A program made the position numbers and the translations under genes. A DNA stretch of 60,000 nt from positions 30,940,001 to 31,000,000 of the forward strand of contig CM097885.1 in assembly GCA_044892525.1 (NCBI GenBank). The letters run 5' to 3'. Below the pieces are notes generated by a model that was not told where the DNA came from, searched no databases, and was given only the letters and a program-made list of their open reading frames with translations. The stretch comes from Schmidtea polychroa. Taxonomy: Eukaryota. Shown here in pieces: positions 3,961-39,600 of the stretch (positions within the stretch are counted from its first letter, which is position 1; each line of letters opens with the position of its first letter).

Positions 3961-4244
3961 CAGTGTTTCTCAGACTTTTCTCGCTCGTGACACACCTCAA
4001 AAATCAAAATTATTTTACAAATTTTTTGATTTTCCAATGATATATAAAAAAGCTACTTTTTAGTCTATACTAATTAAATATGATTACGAGAAATTTTTAT
4101 AAGGTAATAAAGACAATTCTTTGTAATTTTGATCCACAGAAGTGACTTTTTCATAGTAAGAAGCTTGATATAGTTTTTGTAAATTTTTATTATTACTAAA
4201 TTTTTTGGGAAAAAAGTGACGCAGCACACCGTTGAGAAACACTG
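3961..4244. mobile_element. hAT (Charlie/Buster-type) MITE
   Basis: TIRs CAGTGTTTCTCA / TGAGAAACACTG; 8-bp TSD atctagaa / atctaaaa, resembling the NTCTAGAN target of Charlie elements. Confidence 0.85.
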
Positions 4245-4271
4245 ATCTAAAAGCTTGAAACATGTGAGTAG

Positions 4272-5151
4272 AGTAGTATGATTGGGGCCATCCAGACCAG
4301 GGGCCCTCCAGACCACATATACCCCCTCCCCCCCCGGGGGTAAAAAATTTTTTTAGAACTATTACGTAATCGATGCCTAATATTTTTAGAACTATTACGT
4401 AATCGATGCCTAATATTTTTAGAACTATTACGTAATCGATGCCTAATATTTTTAGGACTATTACGTAATCGTTGCCTAATATTTTTAGAACTATTACATA
4501 ACCGATGCCACATATTTTTAGAACGATGCCATATTATTATTTTTCAAAAATATTATTAACTGTGCTGGCGGTGACCTACCTTTTGACTTCCCAGAACATT
4601 TTGAGTTTTCAAAATTATTTGAATATTTATACATCATTTTGAAGACCAGACGGAGACAAATCTTTTGAGCTATCGAAATAATTTTTATCACTAGTGGTAT
4701 AAAAGTTATTAATTTTTTAGTCCGACACTGATTGATGAAAAAATTATTATTATTTTCAAAAATATTTTTAGAATGATGCCTAATATTTTTAGAATGATTA
4801 CGTCATACTTTTAGAACGATGCCTAATATTTTTAGAACGATGCATAATATTTTTAGAATGATTACATCATACTGTAAGAACGATGCGTAATATTTTTAGA
4901 ATGATTACATCATAATTTTAGAACGATGTCTAATATTTTTAGAATGATGCATAATATTTTTAGAATGATTACGTCATAATTTTAGAACGATGCCAAATAT
5001 TTTTAGAACGATTACGTCATACTTTTAGAACGATGCCTAATATTTTTAGAATGGTGCCTCTTATTTTTAGAATGGTGCCTCTTAATTTTAGAACTAATAA
5101 TTTTTGTTTTAATTATCGATTACATAATAATTTAATTTGTTTAAATCGTTG

Positions 5152-5189
<38 letters not shown>

Positions 5190-5428
5190 CTCCGAGTTTA
5201 TCCGGCAAGATATTCTGTCCCCCTATGGGTACTGCTCACCATAGTACTGCTCACGCTCAACAAGTCACATGGGTACTGTTCACAAAGTTACTACTAAAAA
5301 TATTTAAGACAAAACTTTAACAAAGAAATTCTAAATATTATACTTTAAATATACACTCAAACTAAAATTTATTAACACATTCAAATTCATCATCTCCACA
5401 GTTCATAACATTTTCAAATACAATTTCA

Positions 5429-5494
<66 letters not shown>

Positions 5495-5832
5495 GCGCGC
5501 AGGGAATATTATTATCATATATAGTCAGAGTCTATCCGACAAGATATTCTGTCCCCCTATGGGTATTGATCACAAGGGTACTACTCACATTCAACATGTC
5601 TCAAAGGGTATAATATAATTATTATTAAATTCTGACCAACTTAAATCAATGAAGGGGTAGAACAAAAATATATTAAGTTGCGGTATTTTAAATTTAAAAA
5701 TATTTTAAAAACTTATTTTGACACTAAAGTTTACTTAATTAACAAAGACATAATTATTGCACATGCTTTGCATAAATATTATTATTTTTTAAATTTTCAA
5801 TATTTTCTTTTAAAGTATTAACATGCGCGGGA

Positions 5833-5901
<69 letters not shown>

Positions 5902-6104
5902 GTTAACGAAAAATCTAAAATATGGTTTACACACACAACCCCTCAACCATTATTATTATTATCAATATTAATAACCTAAAATATTTTCTACACACACACA
6001 CACATGCACAACTCATTAACCATTATTATTATCAATATTAGTGAAATTCTAAAATATTTTCTACACACATATACAACCCATTAAACTTTTATTATTATTA
6101 TTAA

Positions 6105-6159
<55 letters not shown>

Positions 6160-6418
6160 GCAAATATTAGTTAAAAAGATAAATTATTTCTACACACATA
6201 CACAACCCATTAACCATTATTATTATCATTATTAGTGAAAACCTAAAATATTTTTTACACACACACACAACCCCTCAACCATTATTATTATTATCAATAT
6301 TAATAACCTAAAATATTTTCTACACACACACACACATGCACAACTCATTAACCATTATTATTATCAATATTAGTGAAAACCTAAAATATCTTCTACACAC
6401 ATATACAACCCATTAAAC

Positions 6419-6466
<48 letters not shown>

Positions 6467-6655
6467 GCAAATATTAGTCAAAAACATAAAAACACACACT
6501 CAACCAATTAACAATTATTATTATCAATATTATTATTATTGCAAATACTAGTCAAAAACTTAAAATTTTTTTTTTACACACACACAACCCATTAACAATT
6601 ATTATTATCAATATTAGTGAAAACCTAAAATATTTTCTACACACACACACACACA
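4272..6655 (+). repeat. Left terminal inverted repeat (~2.4 kb) of the Polinton-like element
   Basis: Near-identical reverse complement of 12152-14479; differences are mainly tandem-unit and (ATT)n copy number. It contains a 33-bp array (~4347-4512), a 21-22-bp array (~4762-5095), two copies of the ~90-115 bp motif, (ATT)n tracts and (AC)n-containing blocks. Confidence 0.93.
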
Positions 6656-7391
6656 ATAATCATATAATTCATTTTCTTCATTACTAAGTAAAATAATTAA
6701 AATATTGTAGTAAATTCTTTATTTACTTACTTTATGGATACTAAATCGAAAGAAATAAAGTTATATCAAAAGTATATTTAAATAAATTAAATTTAAATAA
6801 TTTAATTTAGTTATTTAAAAATATTTAAACAATTTAGTTATTTAAGCATATTTAAACATTAACATTATTATATAGTATAATTTTATATAATATTATAATT
6901 TTATGTACACTTATATATCCTTCATTTAATTTTTTAAATTCAAAATTTATAATGAAGATTCTTTGAATTAAAAAATATTCTGTTAGTATTTCCAGGCAGT
7001 AAACAACGAATTCAATAATTAAAATCTTAATTTTCATGTTGTTAGGGTTGTGGCCAGAATTTAATCGCCATCTAATCGTTTGTTCTCAATTTCGCTCATT
7101 TTTGTTCAAAACATTCAGGTGAGTTGTTATCTGGAAAGTTTCTTTGAGCTCAGTTTTGTTAAAACACTCACGGTATTTTTGAGGGACGTGACACTGGGAA
7201 TAAATTAACAATGGGTGGTCTTGCATACATGTTGTTGGTTTGAACTGTTGATTTATTTTAGAAATATGTATATTAAAAACATTTAAGGTATCATTCAGTA
7301 AAATAATATAGTATTTTTGAGTATTTTTAGTTGATTTATAAATAACAGTATTTTGATATATCAATAAAGACCATATACTCCTAGTTTATCC
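6656..7391 (-). repeat. Internal inverted duplicate (A') of 9915-10650
   Basis: The identical 92-aa and 61-aa ORFs appear on opposite strands (7086-7364/9942-10220; 6852-7037/10269-10454). The match was traced from ataatcatataattc to ctcctagtttatcc. Confidence 0.95.
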
Positions 7392-9914
7392 TTTATATTT
7401 AGTTTATATTTAATTCAATATTAAAGGAGTTAATCAAAATTTAAAATATAAAGTTATCATAATTGCTTAGTCAAATACCATTTGTTATGTATGTTTGTCA
7501 TTTTTGGATTAAATACTTTATCAAAATAATTGTTTATCACATTATTATTATTCGTTAGTCACTCATATATTAGAAATAATTTATAAATACTCATCACTTA
7601 TAGCCCCCCATTTTCCACTAATCCTCCCAACAACTATTTCTTTGAACATTGAATTAAATATTTTTTTTTATTAAAGTGATCTTTTTTATAAATTTTTATG
7701 AATTTCATGAAATAATTTTAAATAAATGCAATTAATATATTTCCATCTTATCTATGACACTTCTCGGTATATTTACATTTACGTTCCATTAATGAATAAT
7801 TCAAACCCTTATTTTCACCTTTTTGAATTTCATTATTAATTAATCATAGAATAATGATGATTCTTACCACCTGAGAATAATATTGTTAATTTTATCTCTG
7901 TGTTATTAAAATTATCTTTCGATTTTACGCTGCTTACCACTTTAGAATAAGATTTTTTATTAAAATTTGTGATAATTCGACTGATTCAATTTGATGGAGT
8001 TATTGTTAATTCGTTTTATTATATATATACTCGGAGTTTATCCGACAAAATATTTTCTCCCTCTATGGGTACTGCTTGTAAGGGTATTGGTCGTAAGGGT
8101 ACTGGTCGTAAGGGTACTGGTCGTAAAGGTACTGGTGTGTTTTAATGATTTTATTTAGGCAAATATTTGGTTATTATTTGGCATTAAATTCATTGGTAAT
8201 TTTTTAGAGTTAGCGGGATTTTACTAACATTTTTTTGTGAATTTCATGTTAATTGAAAGAATATTTAAGGTTTAGTGTTAATTCTAAGATAAATTTAATT
8301 AATTTCTTGATAATTTGCTATATTTTATTAATTTTGATGATGATGATGACTTTGTAATGATAATTTGACTAAATAATTTTTTCATATATTTTTCTAAGAA
8401 TATTTACACATTGATGAACTTTAAAATATTGAAAATCTAAAGTTGAAACAATCTAATTTTTTCACGATGATGATATATTTAAAATCTACTTGAAAATTAT
8501 TGTAAAATATACCTAAATTTAGTTTGAAAGATATATCATGTTATAATGGTTATAATTATGATCAATCAATGAGATATTATCATCTCTAGTTAGGTATTTG
8601 ATGACACATGTGGTTAAATATTTATTTTAATGAATTTTGATCTTTTAGTGGACTCTTTGAATTTAGCTACTAAATTATTTCAATGGAAGAATGTCTGTGA
8701 CAATTAAATAAAATTCATATTTTGAAGAATTTTCTATAGATTTTAAGATTTATTAAAGGGCACAAGTGGATGAAATTATATTCGGTTGGATTTAGTGAAG
8801 GTTAAGATGGTAATATATACGATTTAAGGTGTTTTAAGGGGTAAAGATATTTGGTGAGGGATCGGTTAATGTTTTGAATATTTATATATTCTTATTGGTA
8901 AAATATCAAATTTTCAAGGGAAATAGTCAGCTATGAATAGTTCCTGTGAAATTATATCGTTTTAGAGGTTGTGATGAATGTTATTGCACAGTAATTTATG
9001 TTTCAGAACCAGTTTTTATTAATTATCCACGGTTTTATTAATGGGTAATGACTAATTTACTTGGTTTTGACAATGCAATATTTGAAATATTTAGAGATAA
9101 TTGATATCAAAGGTTATTGCTTTAAATTATTTTATTTAACATTTTAAAGACGGACATTCATTATGAAGATAACGGTAACAAAAATATTGACTTAAAAGAG
9201 TTAGACATCGACAACTAAAGAAAATTTAACTTTCATGAAGGAAATTTATGATTTTAATTATATTTCCAGAAATTAAATAGGTTGAATATCAGTTAATCTA
9301 TTGAAGGAATATTGTTATCGGGTGGATAAATGATATTTTGCTAAATTACCTTTGCTAAATATTATTTTAAATGACTAAAAATAACAAAATTAAGCAATAT
9401 TCATAAATTTATCGCACAAAATGTCCATGTTTTGGTTACTCAAACATCTTAAATTTCTCGCAAAGATATATTACGTCTAATGATCATCTAATTAAATTAG
9501 AAAATAATTGTTACTTTATAATATATATTTCTAAATAATAGGCCCCTTAATTGGATAAATGATAACCATATTTCTATTATGACTCCTTTAATTATTTATG
9601 CCTCAAACAAATTTACTCCAAATGATAAAGAATTTAAAATTATCAATGAATAATGACCATGTTTTTCTCATATTATTAACTATTGTAACGAACATTAGAT
9701 GAATAAATTAATTTTTGCTTTAAATGACTACAAAGTTAACCAATAAATTAGTCGCTCGACATAAGTGTAAAGTTACATTTAAAATATTCACGAATTTCTG
9801 ATCATCTCACTAAATTACCTAAGAATTTCTAAATGATTAATATAGCCTTGCGACATGTTGAATGTGACCAGTACCCTTGCTAGCAATACCCATAGGGGGA
9901 CAGAATATTTTGTC

Positions 9915-10650
9915 GGATAAACTAGGAGTATATGGTCTTTATTGATATATCAAAATACTGTTATTTATAAATCAACTAAAAATACTCAAAAATACTATAT
10001 TATTTTACTGAATGATACCTTAAATGTTTTTAATATACATATTTCTAAAATAAATCAACAGTTCAAACCAACAACATGTATGCAAGACCACCCATTGTTA
10101 ATTTATTCCCAGTGTCACGTCCCTCAAAAATACCGTGAGTGTTTTAACAAAACTGAGCTCAAAGAAACTTTCCAGATAACAACTCACCTGAATGTTTTGA
10201 ACAAAAATGAGCGAAATTGAGAACAAACGATTAGATGGCGATTAAATTCTGGCCACAACCCTAACAACATGAAAATTAAGATTTTAATTATTGAATTCGT
10301 TGTTTACTGCCTGGAAATACTAACAGAATATTTTTTAATTCAAAGAATCTTCATTATAAATTTTGAATTTAAAAAATTAAATGAAGGATATATAAGTGTA
10401 CATAAAATTATAATATTATATAAAATTATACTATATAATAATGTTAATGTTTAAATATGCTTAAATAACTAAATTGTTTAAATATTTTTAAATAACTAAA
10501 TTAAATTATTTAAATTTAATTTATTTAAATATACTTTTGATATAACTTTATTTCTTTCGTTTTAGTATCCATAAAGTAAGTAAATAAAGAATTTACTACA
10601 ATATTTTAATTATTTTACTTAGTAATGAAGAAAATGAATTATATGATTAT
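9915..10650 (+). repeat. Internal segment A, inverted partner of 6656-7391
   Basis: Reverse complement of 6656-7391 with very few substitutions. Confidence 0.95.
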
Positions 10651-10796
10651 GAAGAAGATGAACCAGACAAAATGGTGAAACACTAAATGACTTATGTTCT
10701 GGATTTAGAAATTTCTTATTAAAACATGAATTATAGAAAAAAATGAACCAGACAAAATGGTGAAACACTAAAGGAGTTATAGTTCCGGATTTCTTA

Positions 10797-11264
10797 AATG
10801 AATTAGCTGATTGTGGGTGTCCTTCAACATGAATTATCAGACTTAAATTATGTAAACTTTCAACGATTGTCAAGAAAAATGGGAAAAACCGATGTTTTAG
10901 CAATTAGATATTGTAAAGTACTACCTGAAGAATATTATTATTAATGTAAGACATGAATTAATTCTTTAAAATATATATATTATATTTAGGTATCTGTGTT
11001 TTATGGTGGGAAATGACATTGAAAAAGTATACCACAAATAACAGTTGCCTAATTTATCAAGCCTGTGACGATAAAATGCTAGATAATGTAAGTTAATTGC
11101 TTTTAAATCAATATAAATTTTAGCAATGATAGTTGACGCCACATCAGAAACTAAGAAATATGTCCAATTCGCAAGATGTATTCCATGAAATCACTATCAA
11201 ATGGCCTGATGGAGATGATAATTTTGAGATAGATTACCAACAGAAGAGCGAGAAAAATTTGTAA
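10797..11264 (+). pseudogene. Decayed spliced cargo gene of unknown function inside the Polinton-like element
   Basis: Two GTAAG...TTTAG mini-introns (10946-10989 and 11088-11123) separate coding-like blocks (LIVGVLQHELSDLNYVNFQRLSRKMGKTDVLAIRYCKVLPEEYYY; ...SQDVFHEITIKWPDGDDNFEIDYQQKSEKNL*). Stops interrupt the frame. Confidence 0.45.
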
Positions 11265-12151
11265 ATTAAATATAATAGGGTTGGGTGGGTCCTCTTTATC
11301 CCTTAATTAATATATATATATTTACAAGCTGATCGTCGTGGTGGGCGGTTGTAATCCAACTAGTGGGAGGCCTCTGTAAATATATATTTGTGTTAGTGAA
11401 AACATTAATTAATTTGGTTATAGTGCCAATGACGCATGTATTTTGAAATTATACGTTTCGAATGTGGTGGTAGTTGACTACCCATGCTAGGCGTAATGTT
11501 CCATACGGAAAACTATAATGCCCAGGTTCTTTTGACCCCACTTGGGGGAGGCACAGACGACCCTTGTGGACGCGAACAAATATCCACCGTGTCTTTCAGG
11601 CACAGATATTTGGTCACTGCTCATTAGGCCTGGCAATAATAAATGCATACACTTTGCCTTGTCCTCTCTTGTCTTTATTTTTATCGTTTAAATAGTGTGT
11701 GTGATAAGTTTTATTTACTAACCCTAATTAATATACCCTTGCGATATGTTGAGTGTGACCAGTACCCTTGCTACCATTACCCATAGGGGGACAGAATATC
11801 TTGTCGGATAGACTAGGAGTATATACACCCATGTTAAACAAGGTATGTGTATATAGAATGTATGTGTAAAATTATCGCTCCTTATTGAAAATTTCATGTA
11901 AAGGCAAACACAGAATACTGCAAACATATAATAATACTCTACCCCATAACTTAGTGTGTAAAAATTATTTAAGGTTTTTTCACTAATAATAATAATAATT
12001 ATAATAATAATAATGATAATAATAAAGTTTAATGGGTTGTATATGTGTGTAAAAAATATTTGAGGTTTTCACTAATATTGATAATAATAATGGTTTATGA
12101 GTGTTTTTATGTTTTTGACTAATATTTGCAATAATAATAATGGTTAATGGG

Positions 12152-12341
12152 TTGTGTGTGTGTGTGTGTAGAAAATATTTTAGGTTTTCACTAATATTGA
12201 TAATAATAATTGTTAATGGGTTGTGTGTGTGTAAAAAAAAAATTTTAAGTTTTTGACTAGTATTTGCAATAATAATAATATTGATAATAATAATTGTTAA
12301 TTGGTTGAGTGTGTGTTTTTATGTTTTTGACTAATATTTGC

Positions 12342-12392
<51 letters not shown>

Positions 12393-12651
12393 GTTTAATG
12401 GGTTGTATATGTGTGTAGAAGATATTTTAGGTTTTCACTAATATTGATAATAATAATGGTTAATGAGTTGTGCATGTGTGTGTGTGTGTAGAAAATATTT
12501 TAGGTTATTAATATTGATAATAATAATAATGGTTGAGGGGTTGTGTGTGTGTGTAAAAAATATTTTAGGTTTTCACTAATAATGATAATAATAATGGTTA
12601 ATGGGTTGTGTATGTGTGTAGAAATAATTTATCTTTTTAACTAATATTTGC

Positions 12652-12709
<58 letters not shown>

Positions 12710-12910
12710 TTAATAATAATAATAAAAGTTTAATGGGTTGTATATGTGTGTAGAAAATATTTTAGAATTTCACTAATATTGATAATAATAATGGTTAATG
12801 AGTTGTGCATGTGTGTGTGTGTAGAAAATATTTTAGGTTATTAATATTGATAATAATAATAATGGTTGAGGGGTTGTGTGTGTAAACCATATTTTAGATT
12901 TTTCGTTAAC

Positions 12911-13000
<90 letters not shown>

Positions 13001-13338
13001 TCCCGCGCATGTTAATACTTTAAATGAAAATATTGAAAATTTAAAAAATAATAATATTTATGCAAAGCATGTGCAATAATTATGTCTTTGTTAATTAAGT
13101 AAACTTTAGTGTCAAAATAAGTTTTTAAAATATTTTTAAATTTAAAATACCGCAACTTAATATATTTTTGTTCTACCCCTTCATTGATTTAAGTTGGTCA
13201 GAATTTAATAATAATTATATTATACCCTTTGAGACATGTTGAATGTGAGTAGTACCCTTGTGATCAATACCCATAGGGGGACAGAATATCTTGTCGGATA
13301 GACTCTGACTATATATGATAATAATATTCCCTGCGCGC

Positions 13339-13425
<87 letters not shown>

Positions 13426-13664
13426 TGAAATTGTATTTGAAAATGTTATGAACTGTGGAGATGATGAATTTGAATGTGTTAATAAATTTTAGTTTGAGTG
13501 TATATTTAAAGTATAATATTTAGAATTTCTTTGTTAAAGTTTTGTCTTAAATATTTTTAGTAGTAACTTTGTGAACAGTACCCATGTGACTTGTTGAGCG
13601 TGAGCAGTACTATGGTGAGCAGTACACATAGGGGGACAGAATATCTTGCCGGATAAACTCGGAG

Positions 13665-13720
<56 letters not shown>

Positions 13721-14479
13721 CAACGATTTAAACAAATTAAATTATTATGTAATCGATAATTAAAACAAAAATTATTAGTTCTAAAATTAAGAGGCACCAT
13801 TCTAAAAATATTAGGCATCGTTCTAAAAGTATGACGTAATCGTTCTAAAAATATTTGGCATCGTTCTAAAATTATGACGTAATCATTCTAAAAATATTAG
13901 GCATCATTCTAAAAATATTAGACATCGTTCTAAAATTATGATGTAATCATTCTAAAAATATTAGGCGTCGTTCTAAAAGTATGATGTAATCATTCTAAAA
14001 ATATTATGCATCGTTCTAAAAATATTAGGCATCGTTCTAAAAGTATGACGTAATCATTCTAAAAATATTAGGCATCATTCTAAAAATATTTTTGAAAATA
14101 ATAATAATTTTTTCATCAATCAGTGTCGGACTAAAAAATTAATAACTTTTATACCACTAGTGATAAAAATTATTTCGATAGCTCAAAAGATTTGTCTCTG
14201 TCTGGTCTTCAAAATGATGTATAAATATTCAAATAATTTTGAAAACTCAAAAAGTTCTGGGAAGTCAAAAGGTAGGTCACCGCCAGCACAGTTAATAATA
14301 TTTTTGAAAAATAATAATATGGCATCGTTCTAAAAATATGTGGCATCGATTACGTAATAGTTCTAAAAATATTAGGCATCGATTACGTAATAGTTCTAAA
14401 AAAAAATTTTTCCGCCGGGGGGGAGGGGGTATATGTGGTCTGGAGGGCCCCTGGTCTGGATGGCCCCAATCATACTACT
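12152..14479 (-). repeat. Right terminal inverted repeat (~2.3 kb) of the Polinton-like element
   Basis: Reverse complement of 4272-6655. Confidence 0.93.
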
Positions 14480-19681: not shown

Positions 19682-19974
19682 TGTTAGACGCAATTAAATT
19701 CAAGTCTTCTTCAAGCATTTATTTTTATAACAACTTCAAAATTGTGCCGTTTACTAGAGTATTTAAACACCGAGGCGTGATAATTATTAACATTAATGAA
19801 TTTACTGGTCATATATTTAATTGATTTAATTTAATATAATTTAATATAATATGATATAATTTAATATAGAATTTAAATATAAAGATTTAACAGAAATAAT
19901 TATTTCTACTAACTGATCTCACTTCTACCATTTAACCATAATAATTTTATATAGAGATTTACTAACTCCTTACA
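19682..19974 (-). repeat. 3' LTR of the Gypsy element (293 bp)
   Basis: Direct repeat of 24318-24590. I count 8 substitutions and a 20-bp indel. The PPT aaagaaaggggga (19975-19987, minus) abuts it. Confidence 0.96.
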
Positions 19975-22900
19975 TCCCCCTTTCTTTAAAATGTTTTAAC
20001 TTTTCTATATTCCTCGTTATTTTCCTCCCGTTTTCGTCTGCTAATAAGTAACTTCTTTCATGATTTCGTTTTATTACTGTGTATGGTCCTTCATATCTCT
20101 CGTGATCTTTGTTTCTAATTTCTTGTTTCACCAATACTTTGTCCCCTACTTCTAAGTTCCTAGTTGTGCCAATTTCTTTCGCTTGCTGTCTTTTAGCCTC
20201 TAATTTCCGCATGATTTCATTTCTATCCACTTCATTATTACTATGCCATTGCGATCTATTATTCTTTCTTCCAAATATAATTTCTGCTGGACTCACTCCA
20301 TTAGTTTTTTGAGCTGTCGCATTTAAAACGTATTCTATATCAGGTATTATTTCTGCCCAACTTTTTTTAACTCCTTCTCTGAGTGACGCGTTAATATAGT
20401 CTCTTATAGTACGAAATTGTCTTTCAATTACACCATTAGTATTATGATGATACGGACTCGAAAATATCAACTCAATTCCTGCTGCCTTTGCTAGTTCTTT
20501 AATGCTATTTGCTTCGAAATTCTTTCCACAATCAACATGTAATTCCTTAGGGGCTCCAAATTTCAATATCCAATTATTTAACAAAACTGCCTTTATTGTA
20601 TTTTCATCTTGCTTTCTAATAGGAGTTAGAGATATATATTTACTGTAATGATCGATTATTGCACAAATATATTTTTCACCTCTGAAGGTTTCTCTTAATG
20701 GACCGCAAATATCCATGTATATTTTCTCCATAGGTTCTGAAGCTTGAATTACTTGGGTTTTTTCTTTTGACTTTGTAGTTAAAACTTTGTTTTTCTGGCA
20801 TGCTTCACATATTGAAATAGTCTCTTTTACTTCATTTAGCAAATCTTCCATATCAAAATTGTTCCTAATATATTTCATAACTTTTTCTACTCCTGCGTGG
20901 CATAATAATAAATGTGTTTCCTTAATCATTTCTCGTCTTTTTGTTTCTGGTATCCATATTTTGTTTTGATTGGTATAGATAATATTTCCTTTTAATATAT
21001 ATTTATTATTTTTCCTTTCATTGATTTGATTTTTGATATTTTGTATTTCTGCATTATCTCTTTGCCATTCATTTCCATTATTTTCGGTCATCAATGTTAA
21101 CAATCTAGTTTTTAATCGCCCTGATTTGGGGTTATCATGGTCCATCAAACATTGTACACATTTGCCGCATGTATTTCTAGACAGCATATCTGCATTCGTA
21201 AGCGCCGTACCTTTTCTGAACTCCATTTTTATGTCTAAACTGCTCAAGTATTTTATCCACGTTTGGAACTGTGCTGTTATAGGTTTCTTTGTCGTTAACA
21301 TAAAAGTCATTGCTTTATGATCTGTGCGCAAAACAAACCGTTTACCGTATAAATAATGGTTGAAATGGCGACAGAAATAATATATAGCCAAAAGCTCTTT
21401 TCGTGTTATACAATATCCTCTTTCATGGCTGCTCATTGCATGGGATCCATATGCAATAACGTGTTCATGCCCCATTTCATCTCTTTGTGATAATACAGCT
21501 CCAATTGTATCAAAGCTTGCGTCTGTATCTAATATGAATTCTTTCTTGAAATCTGGAAATACGAGAATTGGCGCTGTAGTCAACGCCATTTTCATTTCTT
21601 CGAAAGCTTTCTCACATTCCTCAGTCCAGATTATTTTTTCACTATTGCTTCCACATATGCTTTCTAGCGCTTTTCATTTTGTTGCATATTCCTTAATAAA
21701 TCTCCGATCATAGTTACATATACCTAAAAAGCTTCTCAAATTCTTTATACACTTAGGCCTTTGAAATGATTTAATAGCCTCAATTTTACTTTGATCTGTC
21801 CGAATCCCCTGACTGTTAATAATGTGCCCTAAAATCTTTACTTCGCTCTTTAATAACTGACATTTTTATGGGTTGATTCTCAATTTAGCTTCCCTTATTT
21901 TCTCTAGAACTTTTCCAAACACATTGTAATGTTCTTCAATTGTTCTTGAAAAAATTAAAATATCGTCTAAATACACCATAACTCCTTCTTTCCATAGATC
22001 TTTCAATATTTTTGTCATTAATTCATGGAATGTACCCGGTACCGCCGCAATGCCAAAAGGCATTCTATTAAAACAAAATTGCCCTTCTTTAGTAGAAAAT
22101 GCTGTCTTTTCTAGCGATCCTATGTCCAAATTCACTTGATAATAAGCGTTCCCAAGATCTATAGAACTAAAGTACTTAGATCCATGTAATGTATCTAAAA
22201 TTTCTTCTACATTCGGCATAGGAAAAGCTTGTTTTCAGTAATCTTATTAAGCTGTCTAAAATCTAAACAAAGTCTGATATCTTTTTTGTCTTTTTTCCAC
22301 ACGCATACTAACGGCGTATTCCAAGGTGAATTACATCTTCTTATGATATCATTATTTTCTAAATTCTTTATGGCAGCATTTATTTTCTCCTCTAAATTGA
22401 TGGGTTGTCTTCTGAGTTTTATCATAATTGGCCCTTCTTTTGTGATGATTTTATGTGCAATTAAATCAGTACATCCGATATCCCAGTTATTAGCCATAAA
22501 ACACTTTTATTGTTTTTAACAATCTCTAACAGTCTTTTATTTTCGTTTAATCTTAGAATTTCTATTGCTTTTTGACATCTCTCGTTATCTGTAATCTTTT
22601 CCCCAAATCTAGCTTCTATTTCACACACAAATTCATTATATCCTTCTTCATTTTGCTTGATGTAGTTTAATTCAATTCCAAACTCTTTCTGTAATTCCAC
22701 TCCGCCTATTATATCTGGAACAATATTTTTAACTATTATAAATGTTATTTTTCTTTCCATATTACCAATTCTAACATCAATATATATTTTTCCGATTGTC
22801 TCTAATTTACTATCATTTGCACATCTTAACATCTCATCTGTTTTTATGATTTTCACATTCACTAATTTGTCCACAACTGCTTCTGCCATTACATTTACTC

Positions 22901-22988
22901 TTGCTCCTGTATCTAGTAAGCATTCCATTCTATAGCCCTGAATTTCAAGAGTTGTACTCGGTCTACCTTGCATTTTTTCATAACTCAA
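19970..22988 (-). pseudogene. pol: Gypsy pol (protease, RT, RNase H, integrase) broken by frameshifts
   Basis: Protease LLDTGA (22461-22988); RT SPWNTP...CLDFRQLN and MPFG...YLDD (21866-22497); RNase H DAS...YCITRKELLAI; integrase HHCC, DDE core and GPY module (19970-21595). Frameshifts lie near 22490, 22220, 21866 and 21670. Confidence 0.96.
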
Positions 22989-23355
22989 TTTCGGTCGTTT
23001 CCATTCATCTTTAGTGAAAATATTTTGCTCCTCTGATATTTCATTAATCCATCCAATTTCCTTTCTCTCTAATTTATCTTCTACCTTTTAATAAATTTAT
23101 AAACTTTTTCATTTACTATTTTATCATTATATTCTGCTTCTTTAATTTCATTATACTCTTCTTGATTCTTCGGATTATTATTATTATTATTTATTAAAGA
23201 TCAGCATTAAAATAACTATAACATTTAAAATTATTTAACGGAAACTTTTTAAAATTACCAATTTTATTACATAAAGGTTCTACATTATTATATATAAGGA
23301 TTATTTACATTATTAAAATTATTATGACCAATATTTACATCAATATCAAAATTAC

Positions 23356-24318
23356 CTAGTATATTGCTCCGATCATTGGCATCGTCTCATCATTAGCTTC
23401 AATTGCTGCAATTGTTCTTCCTGGATTGTGGATCTTTTGTTGATAGCTTGTGGTTCGATGGGCATAATAATTATTGTTTCTCATGTTTGAATTAGTTTGA
23501 AACTTCCTTCTTTCCAAATTTGTATAGCAGTCAATCTCCTTGTGTCCACGTAAGTGACATCTCTGGCATTGAATAGTTGAACATTCTCGCCGTACGTGGC
23601 CTTCAACTCCGCATGCAAAACACGTCATTTTCTTTTTCATTTGGCATTCTCGACTAACATGACCAGTTTTCTTGCATGTCCAGCATTCCAATTGTCGGTT
23701 ACTGACGTTTCGCTGCTTGAAATTATTATTTCCGTTTACCATTCCTCTTTGAGCAACATCTCTGTAGCTTCTGTAGTTTTGTACAACCGGTGAAGTCTTC
23801 ACAACATTAATATGACCCATAATTTTGTTTACCTTTTCTAATTTCTTTATTGTCGCTTTTATTTCTTCTGATGTTTTCAAATCTTTCATCTCGATCTCTT
23901 TTTTAACTTCTCGATCTCTTACACAGTTTGTAAGCAGGCATTTTTCTATTTCTTCTTCATCCCATTTGTGCGCTATTAATTTCTTTGTCATCTTTTTAAT
24001 TTTCTCTATAAAAGTTTCGGCTGAATCTGATCCTTGTTCATAACTCAAAGCTCCTTTTAGATCATCCATTAATGATGTCGCTTTCGAAAATGCATATCGA
24101 AGTTTCTCTTCCATAGTTTTTCCTTCGGCTGCTTCATAATCTTCCATTAGCGATCTGTCAAGTAATGTTGTAGTTAATATTACTTGCATCCTAATTGTTG
24201 TTTTTGTCGCGCCAAAAAACCTTTGACAATCCTTGATAAAATTTTCTAAATCATCGCCTTTGTGAAATTTCTCAGGTAATAGTCTGCTTATCAATAAATC
24301 CGTGGTCGTGGTCGCCAT
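23356..24318 (-). CDS. gag: Gypsy gag with three CCHC zinc knuckles
   Basis: Open frame from ATG at 24318 (MATTTTDLLISR...) containing CWTCKKTGHVSREC, CFACGVEGHVRREC and CQRCHLRGHKEIDC. Confidence 0.93.
   Translation of the reverse strand: MATTTTDLLISRLLPEKFHKGDDLENFIKDCQRFFGATKTTIRMQVILTTTLLDRSLMEDYEAAEGKTMEEKLRYAFSKATSLMDDLKGALSYEQGSDSAETFIEKIKKMTKKLIAHKWDEEEIEKCLLTNCVRDREVKKEIEMKDLKTSEEIKATIKKLEKVNKIMGHINVVKTSPVVQNYRSYRDVAQRGMVNGNNNFKQRNVSNRQLECWTCKKTGHVSRECQMKKKMTCFACGVEGHVRRECSTIQCQRCHLRGHKEIDCYTNLERRKFQTNSNMRNNNYYAHRTTSYQQKIHNPGRTIAAIEANDETMPMIGAIY
24307..24317 (-). promoter_or_regulatory. Primer binding site (probably tRNA-Arg)
   Basis: TGGCGACCACG immediately follows the 5' LTR and is complementary to a tRNA 3' end ...CGUGGUCGCCA. 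The tRNA-Arg assignment is from recall, not a search. Confidence 0.75.
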
Positions 24319-24590
24319 GTTAGACGCAATTAAATTCAAGTCTTCTTCAATCATTTATTTTTATAACAACTGCAAAATTGTGCCGTTTACTACAGTATTT
24401 AAACACCGAGGCGTGATAATTATTAATATTAATGTAATTACTGGTCATACATTTAATTGATTTAATTTAATATAATTTAATATAGAATTTAAATATAAAA
24501 ATTTAACAGAAATAATTATTTCTACTAACTGATCTCACTTCTACCATTTAACCATAATAATTTTATATAGAGATTTACTAACTCCTTACA
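24318..24590 (-). repeat. 5' LTR of the Gypsy element (273 bp)
   Basis: Direct repeat of 19682-19974 with TG...CA ends. Confidence 0.96.
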
Positions 24591-25075: not shown

Positions 25076-27359
25076 CCGTATTTTCGCGCATATAACCCGC
25101 GGGTTATACAAGTTTTCCAAACGAATGGCAGCTGTGCGGGGTATACAAAGGTGCGGGGTTTACAAAATTTATTTTACTCATAAACATAGCATAACGGAAA
25201 CTATGGACATACCGGTGGGTCTTTATACCTCCTATAGTTCGCTGTGTGGTTGTGAAATGTAAAATGAAAGCTTTATGAACATCTCATTATAAACCTCAAG
25301 AAAACCAATAGTACCGATGCGGCAGAGAATCGTTAATATACTAGTAATCAAATGTAACAAGTAGGTAAGCAACTAAACTAATTTGCCGATACCAGTAGTG
25401 TCGAAACGTATAGACTACAATGCATGCAATACAGCCGCAATCAATCGCCAGTCTCACTAATGTCACTGTCCTCGCTATAGTTAGTGAAGCCATCGAAACT
25501 CGTATCATATTCACTGTCTCCTTCAAATAAGCGAAGCATGTTGGCAACAGCAGTTGTGTCATAAATCGACTCTTCATCACTATTATCATCGTCAGTATCA
25601 GCGTTCACATTGTCGGCCGAAATGAAGCTGCCCTCTACTGCTGGCTCTGAATTAGCTTCACTGACTGTTAGCAGGCCAGCCTTCTTGAAACCATTGCGAA
25701 TAGTTTCAGTGCTGATTTGCTGCCACGCTGCCAGAACCCATTTGCATACTTCAATGTACGTAGCACGTCTCTGATTTCCTGATGGTGTGAATGTGTGTTC
25801 TCCTTCACTCATCCATTTCTCCCATTCGTTGCGGACAAAACACTTGAATGGATGATTAACAGCGATGTCAAGTGGCTGAAGCTTACATGTTAAGCCACCC
25901 GGAATGACAGCAATGTGCGCACCGGTCTTATTGATCTGTTTGTGAACAGACGGCTCTTTGTGTGCAGCCATTGCATCAAAAATCAACAACGACTTTGGCA
26001 GAAAGAATCCACCCTGTCTAGCACGAAAGCATCGTTCAGTCCACTCTTTCATCACGTCCGTGTTCATCCATCCTTTTTTGTTGCACAGTACGATTGCTCC
26101 CTGAGGCAGTTTCTCACGTGGCATTGTCACTCTTTTTAATATAATCAATGGTTTCAACGTCTCACCGGCAGCTGAGCACGCCAGGACAACCGTGAAGCAG
26201 GTGCGTTCATGTCCAGTTGTGGTAATAGCAACCGTTTTACAACCACTTTCCGCTACAGTGCGAGTTGCTGGAATATCAAAAGACATGAGTACCTCATCCA
26301 TATTATAGACAGCAGAAGGATTTAAATTCTGTTCAACGATATCCTTTCTAACAAATTCCTGAAAGTCGTTAACTTTCACTTCCCAATTCTCTGGCAGTTT
26401 CTGGCCAACAGTTGTCCGTGCACGAACCGACAACTGATTACGTGTCATGAATTTAAAAACCCAGTTGTTGCTACCAGTGAAATTATCCATCTTCATTTCA
26501 GCAGCCATTATTTTCGCCTTCAGTTTGATACCAACAGTTGACACTGCCCTGTTGTTTTCACGCTGAGAGCGAACCCATGCTGCGAGGTTTGTCTCCAGCT
26601 GTGGCCATCTAACCTTTCACCCTCGACGAGCTCTTTTGCGAGGATTAATTTGCTGTAGACTTTCAATGTCTTTTCGCCATTCGCGAACTGACTTTTCATC
26701 AACGTCATACTCTCTTCCAGCAGCTCTATTACCATTTGTAGCAGCAACTGCACAAACTTGCAGCTTAAAATCGGCTGTATATGAATTACGCTTTGGCATT
26801 TTTAGGCTTAAAAGACTTTACTGAGTACTGATTAGAATTTATACACTTTTTTTTATACACTTTAATTGCATGTGCTGCACACTATACGCTACGAAGTTCA
26901 AACTACAAGAATACCCGTGCTGCTGATTACCCCAAGAATTAATAGCCTACACAATAAGGCCGAGCACCAGCCGATGCACAATCAGGCCAATCGTAGGGCC
27001 CAGCTCAGCTGCTGCAGCAAATCTTTCTCCTACCATCACCAGATAACTAGGTCAACGACTTTCTGTCAAAACAACATACTACAGATACGACGTAGGCTCG
27101 TATCGTATTTCACATGCGTGTTGCACTCCATGTATCGCTTGTTGGAACAACAACTACAGCACGATTGCGTCTCGAGGGACAGACGTCTGATAAGTAACAA
27201 CCTTATGTACTGGTAGTTTACGGCAAGTCTCACTTTGCACATGCGGGGTATATAAGGGTGCGGGTCGTACGATTTTGTTTTTACTTATTTTGTAATTTGT
27301 GCAGGGTATACGCGTGTGCGGGTTATGCGCGTATGCGGGGTATATGCGCGAAAATACGG
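25076..27359 (-). mobile_element. pogo-superfamily DNA transposon (DD35D, POGK/Passer-like)
   Basis: TIRs CCGTATTTTCGCGCATATA(A/C)CCCGC at both ends; TA TSD (25074-25075, 27360-27361); subterminal GCGGG(G/T)TAT repeats; transposase inside. Confidence 0.96.
25441..26799 (-). pseudogene. pogo transposase with one premature stop
   Basis: MPKRNSYTADFKLQV...VREWRK (Brinker-type DBD), TGA at 26617-26619, then in frame KVRWPQLETNLAAWV (CENP-B HTH). Catalytic NMDE, IFDAM and QPLD with 35 residues between the 2nd and 3rd D. Confidence 0.93.
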
Positions 27360-29493: not shown

Positions 29494-30001
29494 TATTGAG
29501 GTTTTGAAAGTAAATTATTAAATTATATCAAATCGAATAGTTCCAATTAAAAGGAAAACCGAAATTGAATGACGGTCAAGCAGAGAAGTAATGACAAAGA
29601 AAGATATGATAAAAACAGAACTATAAAAGGGTACAATCAGACACGAATGGAAAATGCGCAAACCTGGGGAAGTGGAATAAAGTGAAATGTTATCGAAATT
29701 GAAGCTGGAAAACGAGAATGAGGTAGATTAGGGGATGGCAAAGAAGACAGTGAGCAAGAAATTGTTAGAAAATGTTTAGGAGGGGTCGTAAAACAGACAA
29801 ATATGAAAAAACACAAAATATTATTTAATTACTTAATTGGCTAATGGGAAACCCGAGCCAATGCAGAACCCGAGCGATGAAGAAGACCCGAGCGCTATAA
29901 TTCGGAAGGATAAACAAAGTGGGAATTCAGAGGGCATTTATCCAAATAGTCGGATAAACGAGAGTAAACAAAAGAAGGGGAATTACTAAGATGGTCAATT
30001 A
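29494..30001 (+). repeat. Truncated LTR (5' half) of the family at 51557-52545
   Basis: Collinear with the reverse complement of ~52010-52545 (e.g. aacagaactataaaagggtacaatcagaca; ttggctaatgggaaacccgagc). Confidence 0.88.
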
Positions 30002-33600: not shown

Positions 33601-36600
33601 AAAGAGCAAAGCTACAAAACCCAAACGAATTCCATGTAAATAAATTTTTTTCATCACGGATACACTATCTGTGACCACAGCAGTTTATGATTTACTATTT
33701 CAAAAGCTTTAGTTGCCCGCATAGATTCTACAATTCGTATCAATCCCCAGCAAAATATATTATCCTTAGAGTGGATGTAAAGGTACAAACTGATGTCCAC
33801 TCATCTAATGCCATGGACCACTATCGGTTATCGCGTATGTATAGAAAATAGCATCAGTGTTGCGATCTCACGAAATGAGTTTCCTCGCATTGGTCGAATG
33901 AGTTATCGCGAATTATTGATTTTTAAGTGCAAAGTTCAATTTCTGACTTTAGTCAAAACTAATTTTGTAAACAATACTAATTAAATAAATAAATAGTAGC
34001 AAATATGTGGATTTTTTTCTGGATTTGTGATAAAACTCTCATGTGTCCATCGGAAACTTGTCAGTCGGGTGTGTCACAAAATACTTCTGCCATTTAAGGT
34101 TTGATTAGTCGGTTTGTAATTGTTAAATAACATTACCTAGTGACTCCTTTCGATTTAAAATTATTATATTCGTGTTTATCTTTTCATTTGCCACCTACTT
34201 ATATCTGTTTGCCTCAAGAGATATTATTTATTTTTTGCATTTAATTTAATTTTGTACACTCCATTTTTATTTGCAGATTTTTTTGAATAACCCTAACAAA
34301 TATAAAATTTTTTTTATTTAGTAAATTACATAAAAATCAAAACTATTCGATTTGTTCATTATTGCCTTCGAGTATATTTGCTTGAGAAAACAGATCGGGC
34401 CTTTAATATTATAAAATAACTCGTCTTTTGTATAACAATAATTAATGGGGAAAATTTCAAAGTCTTAATTATTCAATGATTTTAGAACTCCTTTAGTTCC
34501 ACACTCCAACAACAATATCTTGCTTGGTACCCAGTTGTACTAGGTTTGCTCAGGACAACTAATATCATATTTTTGCTTGGTTACATCACCAACCGAAACT
34601 CCTATGCCAGTCTAACACTATTTCTGCAGCGAATCAAATTGATTGTCAGTAATAGTGTACAAATGACGTCTAAAACTAATCCGTAATTTTTAATTTTTAT
34701 ACTTTAATTTATTAAAAGTTTTATTTAAAATATAAATATTTTTAACAATTTAATTTTATCTTCATTTATATTCAGATTATAGATGAATTATTTATAGGTA
34801 AAATAAATTAAAATATTGATTTATATTATGAAATCAAAGAAAAATAAATGAAATTGATCAGTGGTGAAGGATATGATAATTTTAATTAAACACATCGATT
34901 ATTTAAATAAATAGTTTGTTTAAATATTTGACATTTATATTTGACATTTTATTGAATATAATTTATGGAAATCAAAAAAATAAGTCTGATCAAAATCAAA
35001 ACATTAATCTGGTACCAAAAACAGCTAAATCTTTGATCGAATGCCAAATTTTTAAGAAACTGTTTAGCAGACTCAGACATATTTTCGTCAATTTAATTAG
35101 GCAAAGACTGACTCCAGACATCCAAGAAATAATAGCATTTTAGGACAATTCTATCCGGTCACGACTCCTTGTACGTTTCAGAGACATTAGTCGAAAAATG
35201 CTCTGAAACTGACAAATTATAACACCAGATTCATAGAGACCTATGGGAGAACTATGGAACCTTTTTATGATCAACAATGAAAAGAAAGTTTTCAACCATT
35301 AATAATAAAGTTGTGTGAAGCTACTATTTTAAATTATACAATTGAAAGAATAACATTTATTTGGACACCAGATTTGGAGCTATAAAAAAAACTCCTTGGG
35401 GTACATGAATAAGTTATGTATTTTAAGGAATACCATTCCACGAAAAATTTCTGTACATATAAATTGTTTTACATGAAATGCTGGAAAAGGGACATATACA
35501 GAAAACCAGTAACTCTTGTGTTTAAAATAAATTAATCAAACATTGACAGATGATTATTGACTATTGAAAAGAATAATAATCTGTTAAACATGGTTCCAAG
35601 GCCTTTTGCAGGTTTTATAACAAAAGCACTACACAAAGAATTATATCACGTTGGAGCCTCTGACTTCCACATTAATAAAAATATCAACTTAATTAAATTA
35701 AAATTAATGTGCAAAATATTTGTGTTTTTAATGCTTTTAAATAATTAGTAAATTATTAAATTTTAAATGTTAAAATTTTAAAAATAATATATTATTTTAA
35801 TTATAATTTTTAAAGGAATGAAATGTTTTTATTAAAATGTATTATATATAACAGGGCTGGCAAAAGCGTCGACCGCGTAGCTATCGAAAGTAGCCCGCTA
35901 GCACTATGGAAAATTGCATATAAGAATCAGTTTTTTATTTATTGAATTTCTAACTTTATAAACATATTTAAAATAAGTTTCGATTCATATGACAAAAAAA
36001 TTCCAATAAGAAACATAATATTAGTCAGATAACACTCAGAGTGTAGTAAATTTTTAGTTTGAAATTCAAATATATACAGTTAGCTAATAATCAGAATAAA
36101 TTTCATGTGTTTGAACAAGTAGGCCATAAAATAAAAGCAAAACATTGACGCTACAATCTTCGATAAGGAATAAAAAAATAAAAAACAACCAAAATAAAAT
36201 ACAACAAACGTGTGTTTGTCTATTTCAATTTTGAAATCAAATTGTTTTCGTTAGAAAAATTTGAAAGCTTGAAGTATTCAGTATTGAATAATACCTGCTT
36301 ATAATATTAATTTCAAAATTTTTTTATTAAAAAAAATTCTTTATAAAAGTTAACATTTTTAATTTTTGAGTATGTAAGTGTGTTTAACATTAATTTTCAT
36401 ATTTAATTTATTTTAGCTTTTATTATTTTCTTGTTTTACCCCCAATGACACAACCGGCCAAAAAAACTAAAACGTACCATTATAATACTTAATGGGAACA
36501 GGAATTTTTTTTCATAATGATGAAAGATAAGTGTGTTTGTCTCATTTGTAATTCAAACGTAGCACTACCTAAAAGAGCTAACGTTGAACGACATTTTCGA

Positions 36601-39600
36601 ACAGTGCACAAACAGTATGAAATTGACTTTCCATTACATTCCGAGGTACGAAAAGACAAAGTCAAGCAGTTAAAGTCTCAATTAGGTGCACAACAAACTT
36701 TTTTTACGAAATTTAACTCAAAATCAAAAACAGCTACCCTAGCATCATTCAAGGTAGTTAATATTTTGATGAAACATAAAAAACCTTTTGGAGATGGCGA
36801 AATATGGAAACAGGCGTTTGTTGAAGCTGGTGAGGTGTTATTCAAAGATTTTAAAAATAAATCCGAAATAATGGATTGTATCAACAATATGTCATTGACG
36901 CGCAATACTAGCACGCAAAGAATGGTGGACATTAGCAAAAACTTGGAAGATATTTTGCGGCAAGATATTCGAAAATGCCGCTTTTTCTCTTTGCAATTTG
37001 ATGAATCTACAGATTTCACTGATACTGCGCAACTATGCATCTTCATTCGAATGGTTTTTGATGATATGTTAACCAGAGAAGAATTATTGACTATTCTTCC
37101 AATGAAAGGACAAACAAGGGGTCAAGATATTTACAATTTATTCAAGTCTTTTATAAGTCGCACCCATTTCCCGATTCACAAGTTGGTATCAATTACCACA
37201 GATGGAGCTCCGTCTATGATCGGAAAACATGTCGGATTTGTAACACTTTGCAAAAATGATGAAGAAATTCCCAGTTTTCATTCGTATCATTGCATTATCC
37301 ACCAGCAAACCTTATGCTCCAAAGTGTTGAACTCTAACTATGTAATGAATATTGCGTTTAAAATAGTAAATTCGATACGTGCAAGAAGTCTACAACGACG
37401 TCAATTTCGAACTTTGCTTGAACAATGTGAAATTGAAAATACTGAATTATTGTTACACACGGATGTAAGATGGCTTAGCCGTGCAGCATCTTTAAAACGA
37501 TTTAGAGATCTTTTGCCCGGAATAAAACAGTTTTTGACTGGAAGAGAAGAATTATATCTTGAACTGGAGGATAAAAGTTGGCTGATAAATCTTGCTTTTC
37601 TTTGCGACATTACATAGCACCTGAATAAATTAAATTTACAGCTTCAGGGGAGACACAAATCAATTCTTGACATGATAACGGCAGTAAAGACGTTTAAAGA
37701 GAAACTGTCCTTGTTTGTGCGTCAACTAGAACGGGGTGATTTGAAACATTTTAAAAACATGGAAGAAGAATCCAAAAATGCCCCAGGAATTCTTTACGAT
37801 AAATATACAAATCAAATTACTACCCTTTTAAATGAATTTAACACACGTTTCGCAGATTTATCTAAAATTGCAAATATTGCTATGTTCATGTCATTCCCGT
37901 TTAATGATGTTATTGATACAGAGGAGATCGCTACTCAGATTAATGAATTTCTGGATTCAGATTCAGCTTGCTTAGAAGATGAGATAATAGCGTTGAAAAG
38001 CGACATTTACTTAAAATCAAGAGCTACAACCGAAGATAATTTTTGGAATCTTATTTCAGAAGAAAAATATCCAATTTTGCGGAGAGTAGTTGGATATATG
38101 TCCGCATTTTTTGGATCCACCTATCTTTGTGAATCAGCCTTTTCTTCAATGAATGTCATTAAAACAAAACATCGATCTTGTTTGACAGATGATCATTTGG
38201 AATCATGCTTGCGGATCGCCATAAGCTCCTATTGCCCGAAATACGAAGAACTTGCTGATAAGATGCAGTGCCACGTATCAGGTGCAAGTAGTAGCAGTAA
38301 ATAATATTATATTAAGATATGTTTACGTTCTAGTAAAGTATTATAAGTTTTTTTCTAATTCGTTTTGTATTTAAATAGAATAAATAGAATAACTACAGGT
38401 AACAATTGAAAATAGTTTTTCTGGTAGACCGCCAGATTTAATATAGTTAAAAGTCGCCCGCAAGACTTGAAAGTTTTGCCACCCCTGATATATAATTAAT
38501 AATTAATACAATTAATAAATTTGTTTAAAAATCCTTAATTTATAAAGTTTTTCTATCCCACTTGATGAAATATATCGTGAAAAGAATGTTTGATTGACGC
38601 TTTCTTATAATTAAATCATTGCCATATATGTTTAACTATAAATTAAAATGATTTTTTAAATATTCTTTTTATTCAACAAACATCATAAACAATTCATGCA
38701 TCTTTCGACATCTCATTCGGTAACTCATCAAAATCAATAAAAAATATGCCAAACATTCGAGAAGCTGAAACCTTTGTTTTCCTACCTGAGATCTCTCTGT
38801 TGATGAGCTTGATAATCAACACCTTCTATTCAACCAAAGAAATTTTCCTTAGAATACTAATTTATTAGTAATTCATAGTGGTTCTCATGATAAAGTTCGT
38901 TATGATGGTTTTCAATGTCGTTTTCAATAAAAACTAATTAGTTTCGTGTTTAAGTTGTTTTAGATAAAAATCGATCAATTAAAAACCGATTGATTTAGGC
39001 AAAGTTCCGATTCTAAAAAAGATTATTAATAGTAAAAAAATGAAATTTTAACTGAAAAATTAACGAAAAATTTCTAGAAAATCAGAAATAAAAATTTAAT
39101 TGGGAAATAAAAAATTTGATTAAAGCTAATCAGATTCACGAAATTAATAATTTAGTTATTAAACATAAATATTTCATGTATGATTCAAATGTTATATTAG
39201 CATGTTCACTGCCATGTACACCTAATTCCACATGTTAAAAGTCTCCATATAATTCCACATGTTAAAAGTCTCTATAATACATGTTGGTGTGTTCATCAAT
39301 CGAGAGAGTTTATTTCATTTTTTGATTTTCAATTCAATTTTATTTATGATTTTACAAGTTTTTTAAATTTAAGTATATTTTAAGGCTTGAATTTTGATTT
39401 TATATAATTATGAGATGGGCTCTTAAATATTTCTTGTAATCAGCATTTATAATATATTTATAATATATTGATAATTAAATTTCAGGTGTTTTTTTAGGTA
39501 TTTTATGACATGTTATGAATTTGGAATTATTTCAATAAAATGTAAGTTAGATATATTTTTAACTAAAAAGAAATAAAATAATCACCAAACACATTTATTT

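Follow-up and report, generated by a model that had tools for sequence, protein, structure and literature searches.

The 60,000-nt window analyzed here (Schmidtea polychroa assembly GCA_044892525.1, contig CM097885.1, 30,940,001 to 31,000,000, forward strand) belongs to an AT-rich assembly of 781 Mb and contains a 10.2-kb element at 4272-14479; positions given without a contig name are window positions, 1 being the first base. The element is a non-autonomous Polinton/Maverick derivative rather than a member of an autonomous family, and it is a damaged copy, deleted on one side by two private events, of a palindromic family. That family is gene free and shares its ends with a gene-complete Polinton of the same genome (family B), whose polymerase and integrase have probably replicated and integrated it in trans.

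A damaged copy of a palindromic family

The termini described in a first-pass annotation of this DNA, AGTAGT at 4272 and ACTACT ending at 14479, are present and constitute the (AGT)2//(ACT)2 end motif of Polintons/Mavericks. The near-perfect 6-bp target site duplication (TSD) that it reported is likewise there, with GAGTAG on the left and GAGTAA on the right (5/6 bases). Its near-identical terminal inverted repeats (TIRs) are real, with 11 substitutions over 2,262 aligned bases, besides tandem-unit indels, between the outer arms 4272-6656 and 12152-14479, but the length of ~2.4 kb was understated, a second inverted pair (6656-7391 and 9915-10650) having been overlooked. This second pair indicates that the left arm (3.1 kb) is the mirror image of the right arm (~7860-14479) minus two pieces. 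At 3.1 kb here and 5 to 7 kb in sister copies, the left arm exceeds the ~1.5-kb limit for the TIRs of autonomous Polintons.

The first missing piece, with its junction at 6656, is 1.5 kb corresponding to the mirror of 10651-12151 and included a second 7SL-like cassette. The second comprised ~2.26 kb of the inner arm and part of the central spacer, relative to a natural sister. Each of the two junctions occurs once in the genome, which indicates that the 10.2-kb form is not a mobile subfamily and that the mobile unit is a palindrome of 13 to 14.7 kb; the earlier proposal that the 10.2-kb form kept moving after its genes had died is not supported by this evidence. End joining in this one copy alone is the likely source of both deletions and would have broken its symmetry. 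The empty-site allele that the annotation had suggested looking for was sought in the rest of the genome, with 0 matches.

Further copies were recovered by terminal sequence, as had also been suggested: a terminal 22-mer has 223 genome matches (109 + 114), compared to 0 for its reversed control. An arm 29-mer has 1,980 matches (control, 0), and the central spacer gave 996 first-look candidates, the best 40 of which scored 98 to 100% identity. We estimate the family at ~1,000 copies, many of them deleted or interrupted. Among the first 100 listed matches to the arm 29-mer, 72 make up 36 divergent pairs less than 25 kb apart, 19 with a spacing of 7.3 to 8.2 kb and 13 with less than 7 kb. The 20 pairs that were fetched whole are all palindromic with long arms and, mostly, a spacer of 0.6 to 0.7 kb. 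Lengths and TSDs were scored on a sample chosen from pairs 6.4 to 8.2 kb apart, and the 16 satellites with both ends in view measure 12,977 to 14,723 bp, with arms of 5 to 7 kb that make up ~95% of an intact satellite. An exact 6-bp TSD flanks 14 of these; one matches at 4/6 bases, and one lies in a wider inverted duplication. Loci selected by the spacer had inverted arms in 20/20 cases and both 7SL-like Alu heads in 18/20. When elements were selected by terminus and had both ends (n = 18), the TSD was exact in 12, 5/6 in 2, and not seen at the expected place in 4 short elements. Elements of 3.3 to 8.2 kb with the same ends and duplications also exist. Dispersed copies with their own duplications and no coding capacity are a property of the family; the 10.2-kb form itself is single copy. 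The annotation had named duplications of another length, or a DDE transposase of another superfamily in other copies, as evidence that would speak against its Polinton assignment; the 6-bp duplications hold, and no sampled satellite carries a transposase of another kind as a fixed part.

Several loci depart from this build. Mirror symmetry runs at least 1.9 kb into both flanks of one satellite (L083-L084, G000:C1:187900-205700). Short elements of 0.55, 1.05, 1.56, and 2.1 kb, in size steps of ~0.5 kb, have the same Polinton end block (L066-L069, e.g., G000:C1:9487684-9488229); they are enclosed by another inverted repeat, 70 bp or longer, and their Polinton end shows no 6-bp duplication. At L217 (G000:C1:~211320470-211324450), an element of 4 kb that is palindromic in part, is flanked by an exact 6-bp duplication, and has another terminal subtype is 77 to 85% like the satellite inner arm, which points to an older or sister lineage.

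The annotation's statement that the locus element has no recognizable core genes was borne out. The proteins of the two local Polinton families had no tblastn match in it, 0 of 67 interior open reading frames (ORFs; at least 28 amino acids) matched Pfam at E ≤ 0.01, and genes for pPolB, a retroviral-like integrase, an ATPase, a protease, or a capsid protein were found by neither search. Seven candidate frames compared over 50 arms have synonymous and nonsynonymous variants at ~1:2.5 to 1:8, a neutral spectrum, and stops, and frameshifts occur in 7 to 32 of the 50 copies. The interior is conserved among copies as much as the arms are. It is conserved noncoding sequence, originally part of the arms, and not decayed cargo; given the identity of the top 40 spacer matches (98 to 100%) and the neutral spectrum, there is no sign that the frames taken for decayed ORFs were ever genes. 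Two candidates, a gene (spliced or decayed) at 10620-11300 and the frames at 9921-10451, were rejected, having neither a Pfam match nor coding constraint. The features of the locus element are collected in Table 1.

Table 1. Features of the locus element (window positions)
Feature	Position	Strand	Remarks
Left TSD, GAGTAG	4266..4271	+	5/6 bases shared with the right TSD
Terminal block: (AGT)2 motif and two 16-bp units	4272..4315	+	Differs between elements, usually equal at both ends of one
Outer arm homologous to helper TIR	4272..5620	+	33-bp and 43/107-bp arrays, (ATT)n, 100-bp module
Left arm, outer remnant	4272..6656	+	Mirror of 12152-14479; 11 substitutions/2,262 aligned bases
Left arm, inner remnant	6656..7391	+	Mirror of 9915-10650; 1 mismatch/736 bases
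18-base filler at second deletion	7392..7409	.	Single-copy junction
Remaining central spacer	7410..7859	.	~0.7 kb in intact copies
Intact right arm	7860..14479	+	~6.6 kb, noncoding
100-bp module, one of seven copies	9836..9933	+	Others near 5206, 5540, 8046, 11782, 13272, 13627; also in helper ends
440-bp cassette common to an older repeat lineage	11258..11694	+	TATA-like run upstream of Alu head; AATAAA near end
7SL/SRP RNA Alu 5′ domain-like head	11328..11371	+	34/44 identical to host 7SL; 13/13 stem pairs kept
Right arm, outer part	12152..14479	-	Ends in (ACT)2
Right TSD, GAGTAA	14480..14485	+	

A gene-complete Polinton with the same ends

Family B is a young, abundant, gene-complete Polinton. 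Copies with both ends (n = 7) measure 15.8 to 17.0 kb (median, 16,782 bp) and have exact 6-bp duplications in 6/7 cases. The autonomous relatives of 15 to 25 kb that the annotation had suggested looking for have a counterpart here, with polymerase, integrase, and a capsid look-alike. A 1,322-amino-acid ORF has PolB motifs and is 28% identical (E = 4e-93) to the Pfam-confirmed pPolB of the second local family, A. Family B also encodes an rve integrase, an A32 ATPase, and a TBP; its candidate double-jelly-roll (DJR)-like capsid protein is a look-alike (score, 0.98), protease motifs are present in 10/12 copies, and the core is 98.4 to 99.6% identical among 12 copies. The TBP-like protein (154 amino acids; PF00352, E = 2.8e-15; L034:3242-3703, G000:C2:13034581-13035042) has 4,136 candidate matches, and all 150 that were scored are identical; variants at ~60% identity also exist.

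Family B and the satellite are homologous over the outermost 1.35 kb of each arm, and the matches stop at 5607-5627 for 10/12 helper loci. Three terminal-block variants are common to helper and satellite (two without the terminus-selected copies), and the variant of the locus element also ends the helper copy at C2:13021408. Furthermore, four chimeric loci, one from the terminus-selected set and three among 20 unpaired Alu loci, join the capsid and integrase half of family B to a satellite arm at sharp junctions. These shared ends and chimeras point to family B as the likely agent that replicates and integrates the satellite in trans. The first-pass classification as a non-autonomous element of Polinton type agrees with the sharing of Polinton ends with a gene-complete partner in the same genome.

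Family A Polintons encode pPolB, rve with PLA2, DJR, and A32. Origin of the locus element as a copy-back of one end of the family-A Polinton at C1:176.37 Mb (95% match) was considered and rejected: family A's own terminal sequence and its own 6-bp duplication lie inside a satellite, which indicates a nested insertion of family A in a sister of the locus element. Family-A and family-B Polintons are inserted within satellites at G000:C1:176.37 Mb, 245.42 Mb, and 250.11 Mb (also L159-L160), and three further Alu pairs lie 22 to 23 kb apart; a Polinton target preference for satellites is possible. Inverted pairs of pPolB matches 7 to 10 kb apart (G000:C1:235384712/235393695, 126058387/126068737, and 139680126/139687007; C3:32534493/32544220) suggest that mirror-image derivatives also arise from family-A copies carrying the polymerase.

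Renewal of arms and ends

The two arms of one satellite are usually closer to each other than to any other arm. For segment 9935-11700, median divergence is 0.06% within an element, compared to 1.1% for the nearest arm of another element and 2.6% over all pairs, and the two arms are sisters in 18/23 elements. For segment 8140-9810, the values are 0.23% within an element and 0.54% for the nearest other, with sisters in 14/22. The disagreement between the two segment trees points to recombination. Some elements have arms 2 to 13% apart, each closest to another element. Across 39 elements, 31 variants of the terminal block (one to three 16-bp units) occur, and the block is equal at both ends in 21/27. 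Homogenization of the arms, which the annotation had offered as an alternative, fits these arm divergences.

The simplest reading of this renewal is fold-back strand-displacement replication, following the adenovirus-type panhandle replication model. The protein-primed polymerase and the integrase of the helper would act on the satellite in trans. Once the satellite is excised or released, strand displacement starting at one end would yield a single strand, which could fold into a 6- to 7-kb stem, restoring a duplex origin; such fold-back would make the arms and the terminal block identical in each cycle. Helper and satellite genomes that replicate together may also recombine, which would shuffle ends and arm segments.

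Length could enter as well. Satellites (n = 16) have 0.77 to 0.88 of the helper length (median, 16,782 bp; n = 7), and the locus element has 0.61. In adenovirus, vectors shorter than 75% of the genome undergo rearrangement, and half-size vectors (15 kb) are packaged in dimeric form, both direct and inverted (PMC4189039). By analogy, and with less weight than the preceding steps, doubling of a 7-kb unit to ~0.8 helper length would suit packaging in the helper capsid.

Several points weigh against fold-back replication driven by family B. The arms are not sisters in 5/23 and 8/22 cases for the two segments, and the two ends differ in 6/27 elements. The reading is drawn from genome sequence, its replication intermediates, free linear forms, and particles being predictions. 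At E ≤ 0.05, the Pfam families DNA_pol_B_2 and capsid had no match in the helper ORFs, and a PDB sequence search with the helper polymerase gave none. Over its inner 5 kb, the arm has one 60%-identity, low-complexity match to helper B and no clear homologue there, so that simple copy-back from an end of the present helper does not account for the satellite. One sampled element lies in a larger inverted duplication of its flanks, which indicates that chromosomal processes also make symmetry. Finally, the packaging argument is weakened by the selection of the length sample on spacing, by the 13/36 pairs less than 7 kb apart, and by the elements of 3.3 to 8.2 kb.

The main rival explanation, which we hold to be unlikely, though less so than the others, accepts movement by the helper integrase and attributes the likeness of the arms to gene conversion or repair in the chromosome after insertion. 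Long inverted repeats are able to convert each other, the one element whose flanks belong to a wider inverted duplication fits this, and there are arms that match over one segment but not over the neighboring one. Conversion in place is harder to reconcile with the several elements whose arms are 2 to 13% apart and each nearest another element, or with the locus element itself, which retains two one-sided deletions, unequal numbers of the 33-bp repeat, and 12 substitutions. It also leaves the terminal block to be explained, which matches across 13 to 17 kb, in helpers too, to the last base before unrelated flanks. That the inversion is an artefact of assembly or of chimeric reads is scarcely credible. 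Long-read data are known to yield long, near-perfect inverted repeats as artefacts, and the structure rests on the assembly, with read contigs compared over 7400-11950; yet the same build recurs at dozens of independent loci with different exact duplications, private indels distinguish the arms, and contigs of an independent run cover 30/30 interior bins of 7400-11950.

The annotation had read the locus as a once-coding Polinton whose genes decayed and whose arms are young because the 10.2-kb element kept moving. This reading is largely refuted for the locus element, and we consider it very unlikely. Intron-like and exon-like stretches at 10620-11300 speak for it, as does the presence of the 440-bp cassette in an older lineage, at some loci a few kilobases from family-B-like polymerase fragments; the latter suggests an older Polinton as a possible ancestor of part of the arm. 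Against it stand the single-copy deletion junctions, the empty searches with Pfam and Polinton proteins, the neutral variant spectrum with its many frameshifts, and an interior conserved among copies like the arms. Mobilization by some other element, either a family-A Polinton or an unrelated DDE foldback transposase, is more improbable still. Family A is gene complete and abundant, also begins with AGTAGT, and lies within three satellites, but its ends are different and it is nested there with its own 6-bp duplication. The 1.35 kb of end sequence and the terminal variants are common to the satellite and family B only, and a DDE transposase is not a fixed part of any sampled satellite.

For Polintons, TIRs of 46 to 1,447 bp (vertebrates) or 100 to 1,500 bp and element lengths of 12.7 to 24.6 kb are reported (PMC8097293 and PMC10748475). 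The satellites share with Polintons/Mavericks the (AGT)2//(ACT)2 ends and the 6-bp duplication, and intact satellites (13 to 14.7 kb) lie within that length range; they differ in being without pPolB, integrase, ATPase, protease, and capsid genes and in having arms of 5 to 7 kb. As near-complete palindromes with cis-acting ends only and in need of a helper, they resemble the snap-back defective viral genomes described in PMC13506859, and as near-complete palindromes of ~0.8 helper length they resemble the inverted dimers of helper-dependent adenovirus vectors described in PMC4189039. In contrast to both as described there, the satellite is integrated and inherited in ~1,000 copies, and packaging would apply to it only by analogy; unlike snap-back genomes, its arm is mostly not helper sequence, only the outer 1.35 kb matching helper B. 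Butterfly polintons (bioRxiv 10.1101/2025.02.07.637071) have TIRs of ~2 kb in which the hexon and adenain genes are duplicated, so that there, too, internal sequence has been duplicated into extended ends. According to that description the genes are kept there, whereas the satellite arms are three times longer, noncoding, and ~95% of the element.

We found no description of a palindromic Polinton satellite family in the literature covered, which did not include Repbase and the founding Polinton papers. Non-autonomous Polintons were reportedly described already by Kapitonov and Jurka in 2006, and likewise in Repbase; like the satellite, they are said to be gene free with the ends of an autonomous family. 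To our knowledge, they have not been described as near-full-length palindromes with renewed arms. Foldback elements such as Drosophila FB and Galileo also have long modular inverted arms, tandem repeats, and frequent internal deletions. FB and Galileo have a cut-and-paste transposase as partner and duplications of 7 to 11 bp, whereas the satellite has the Polinton end motif, a 6-bp duplication, and a Polinton partner.

In animals, both the replication of Polintons and their particles are deduced from gene content, and PMC8097293 states that such particles have not been observed. The ~1,000 young palindromes, with arms and end blocks renewed copy by copy, would record a replication route as pairs of long terminal repeats (LTRs) do. 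On the fold-back model, free DNA in linear or hairpin form is predicted, as are a limited range of sizes and exchange of ends with the helper. At 10 to 14 kb each, the satellites may account for up to an estimated ~1 to 2% of the genome, and they are likely hot spots of deletion and inversion.

The 7SL-like cassette and the neighborhood of the insertion

Rfam returned one match in the element, RF00017 at 11328-11426, with 29.6 bits, under the 70-bit gathering cutoff; host 7SL genes score ~240 bits. The host genes form a tandem array (L071-L082, G000:C2:31.93-31.98 Mb) with a 593-bp period and more than 20 copies among 25 scored. The 44-base head of the cassette resembles the Alu 5′ domain of metazoan signal recognition particle (SRP; 7SL) RNA (RF00017) in 34/44 bases and all 13 stem pairs; it differs in scoring below the cutoff and in having lost the G13-C36 loop pair. 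Two of three loop-loop pairs are kept, at positions that we take to be those of the human SRP structure. Among the 10 differences from host 7SL are two-sided changes that keep three stem pairs, and random sets of 10 changes retained all 13 pairs in 490/200,000 trials. The kept stems could be due to selection within the element, or the head may have been captured from the 7SL of another lineage.

Conservation was counted on copies chosen by spacer or terminus, not by the Alu motif; an earlier profile was set aside, as 20 of its 26 copies had been chosen by that motif. Shared variants number 1 in 99 bases (11328-11426), compared to 114 in 1,182 bases nearby (Fisher P = 0.0014, the sites not being independent), and the Alu-head window is the least variable of 45 arm windows of 100 bases. 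Between 17 young and 13 old copies (two duplicates dropped), 15/437 columns of 11258-11694 differ and 0/44 in the head, with the flanks at 56 to 62%. Either selection or recent module exchange may underlie this likeness between lineages. The rest of the cassette has a weak collinear match to the host 7SL S domain that 0 to 22 of 500 shuffles reach (P < 0.002 to 0.044); an S domain would at best be degenerate. A 115-base small Alu-like RNA and a 360-base folded RNA were rejected for want of a folding signal (six pieces, z = −1.0 to +0.7; long form, z = −0.65). There is no support for the cassette being a free short interspersed element: old copies share flanks beyond it, and no duplications were seen around it.

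Two runs of one sample, which we guess to be RNA, gave contigs over 11114-11694 or 11114-11655 and over ~9925-10250, and little else. A third run covers 28/30 bins. The contigs of these runs lack strand, start, and level, and the longest keeps an intron-like stretch. The Alu-like head had 0 exact matches in metagenomes, no RNA family was found at E ≤ 0.5 in two helper stretches and locus L167, and no tRNA was found in the window. If the cassette is expressed, the satellite would bring an RNA function besides its cis-acting ends; adenovirus VA RNA and small cytoplasmic Alu RNA are analogues. A more far-reaching picture, and a doubtful one, would make the family a satellite of an animal polintovirus, heritable and of capsid size; an inverted dimer fitting the helper virion, it would exchange hypervariable end codes with the helper while the two co-replicate and carry in each arm a selected, 7SL-derived RNA acting as an SRP9/14 decoy in the manner of viral small RNAs.

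Just left of the insertion, 3961-4244 is a small element like a miniature inverted-repeat transposable element, with inverted CAGTGTTTCTCA ends. Elsewhere in the window lie LTR retrotransposon frames for gag, protease, RNase H, and integrase (19970-24354, minus strand), a pogo/Tigger-type DDE_1 transposase frame (25441-26616, minus strand), and a hAT/Spin-type transposase split by one stop (36493-38304, plus strand). A purine-rich repeat at 29526-29998, 47456-47615, and 52033-52524 has dispersed inverted copies at 87 to 90%, and 53321-53728 (plus strand) is an exon of a host RUN-domain gene.

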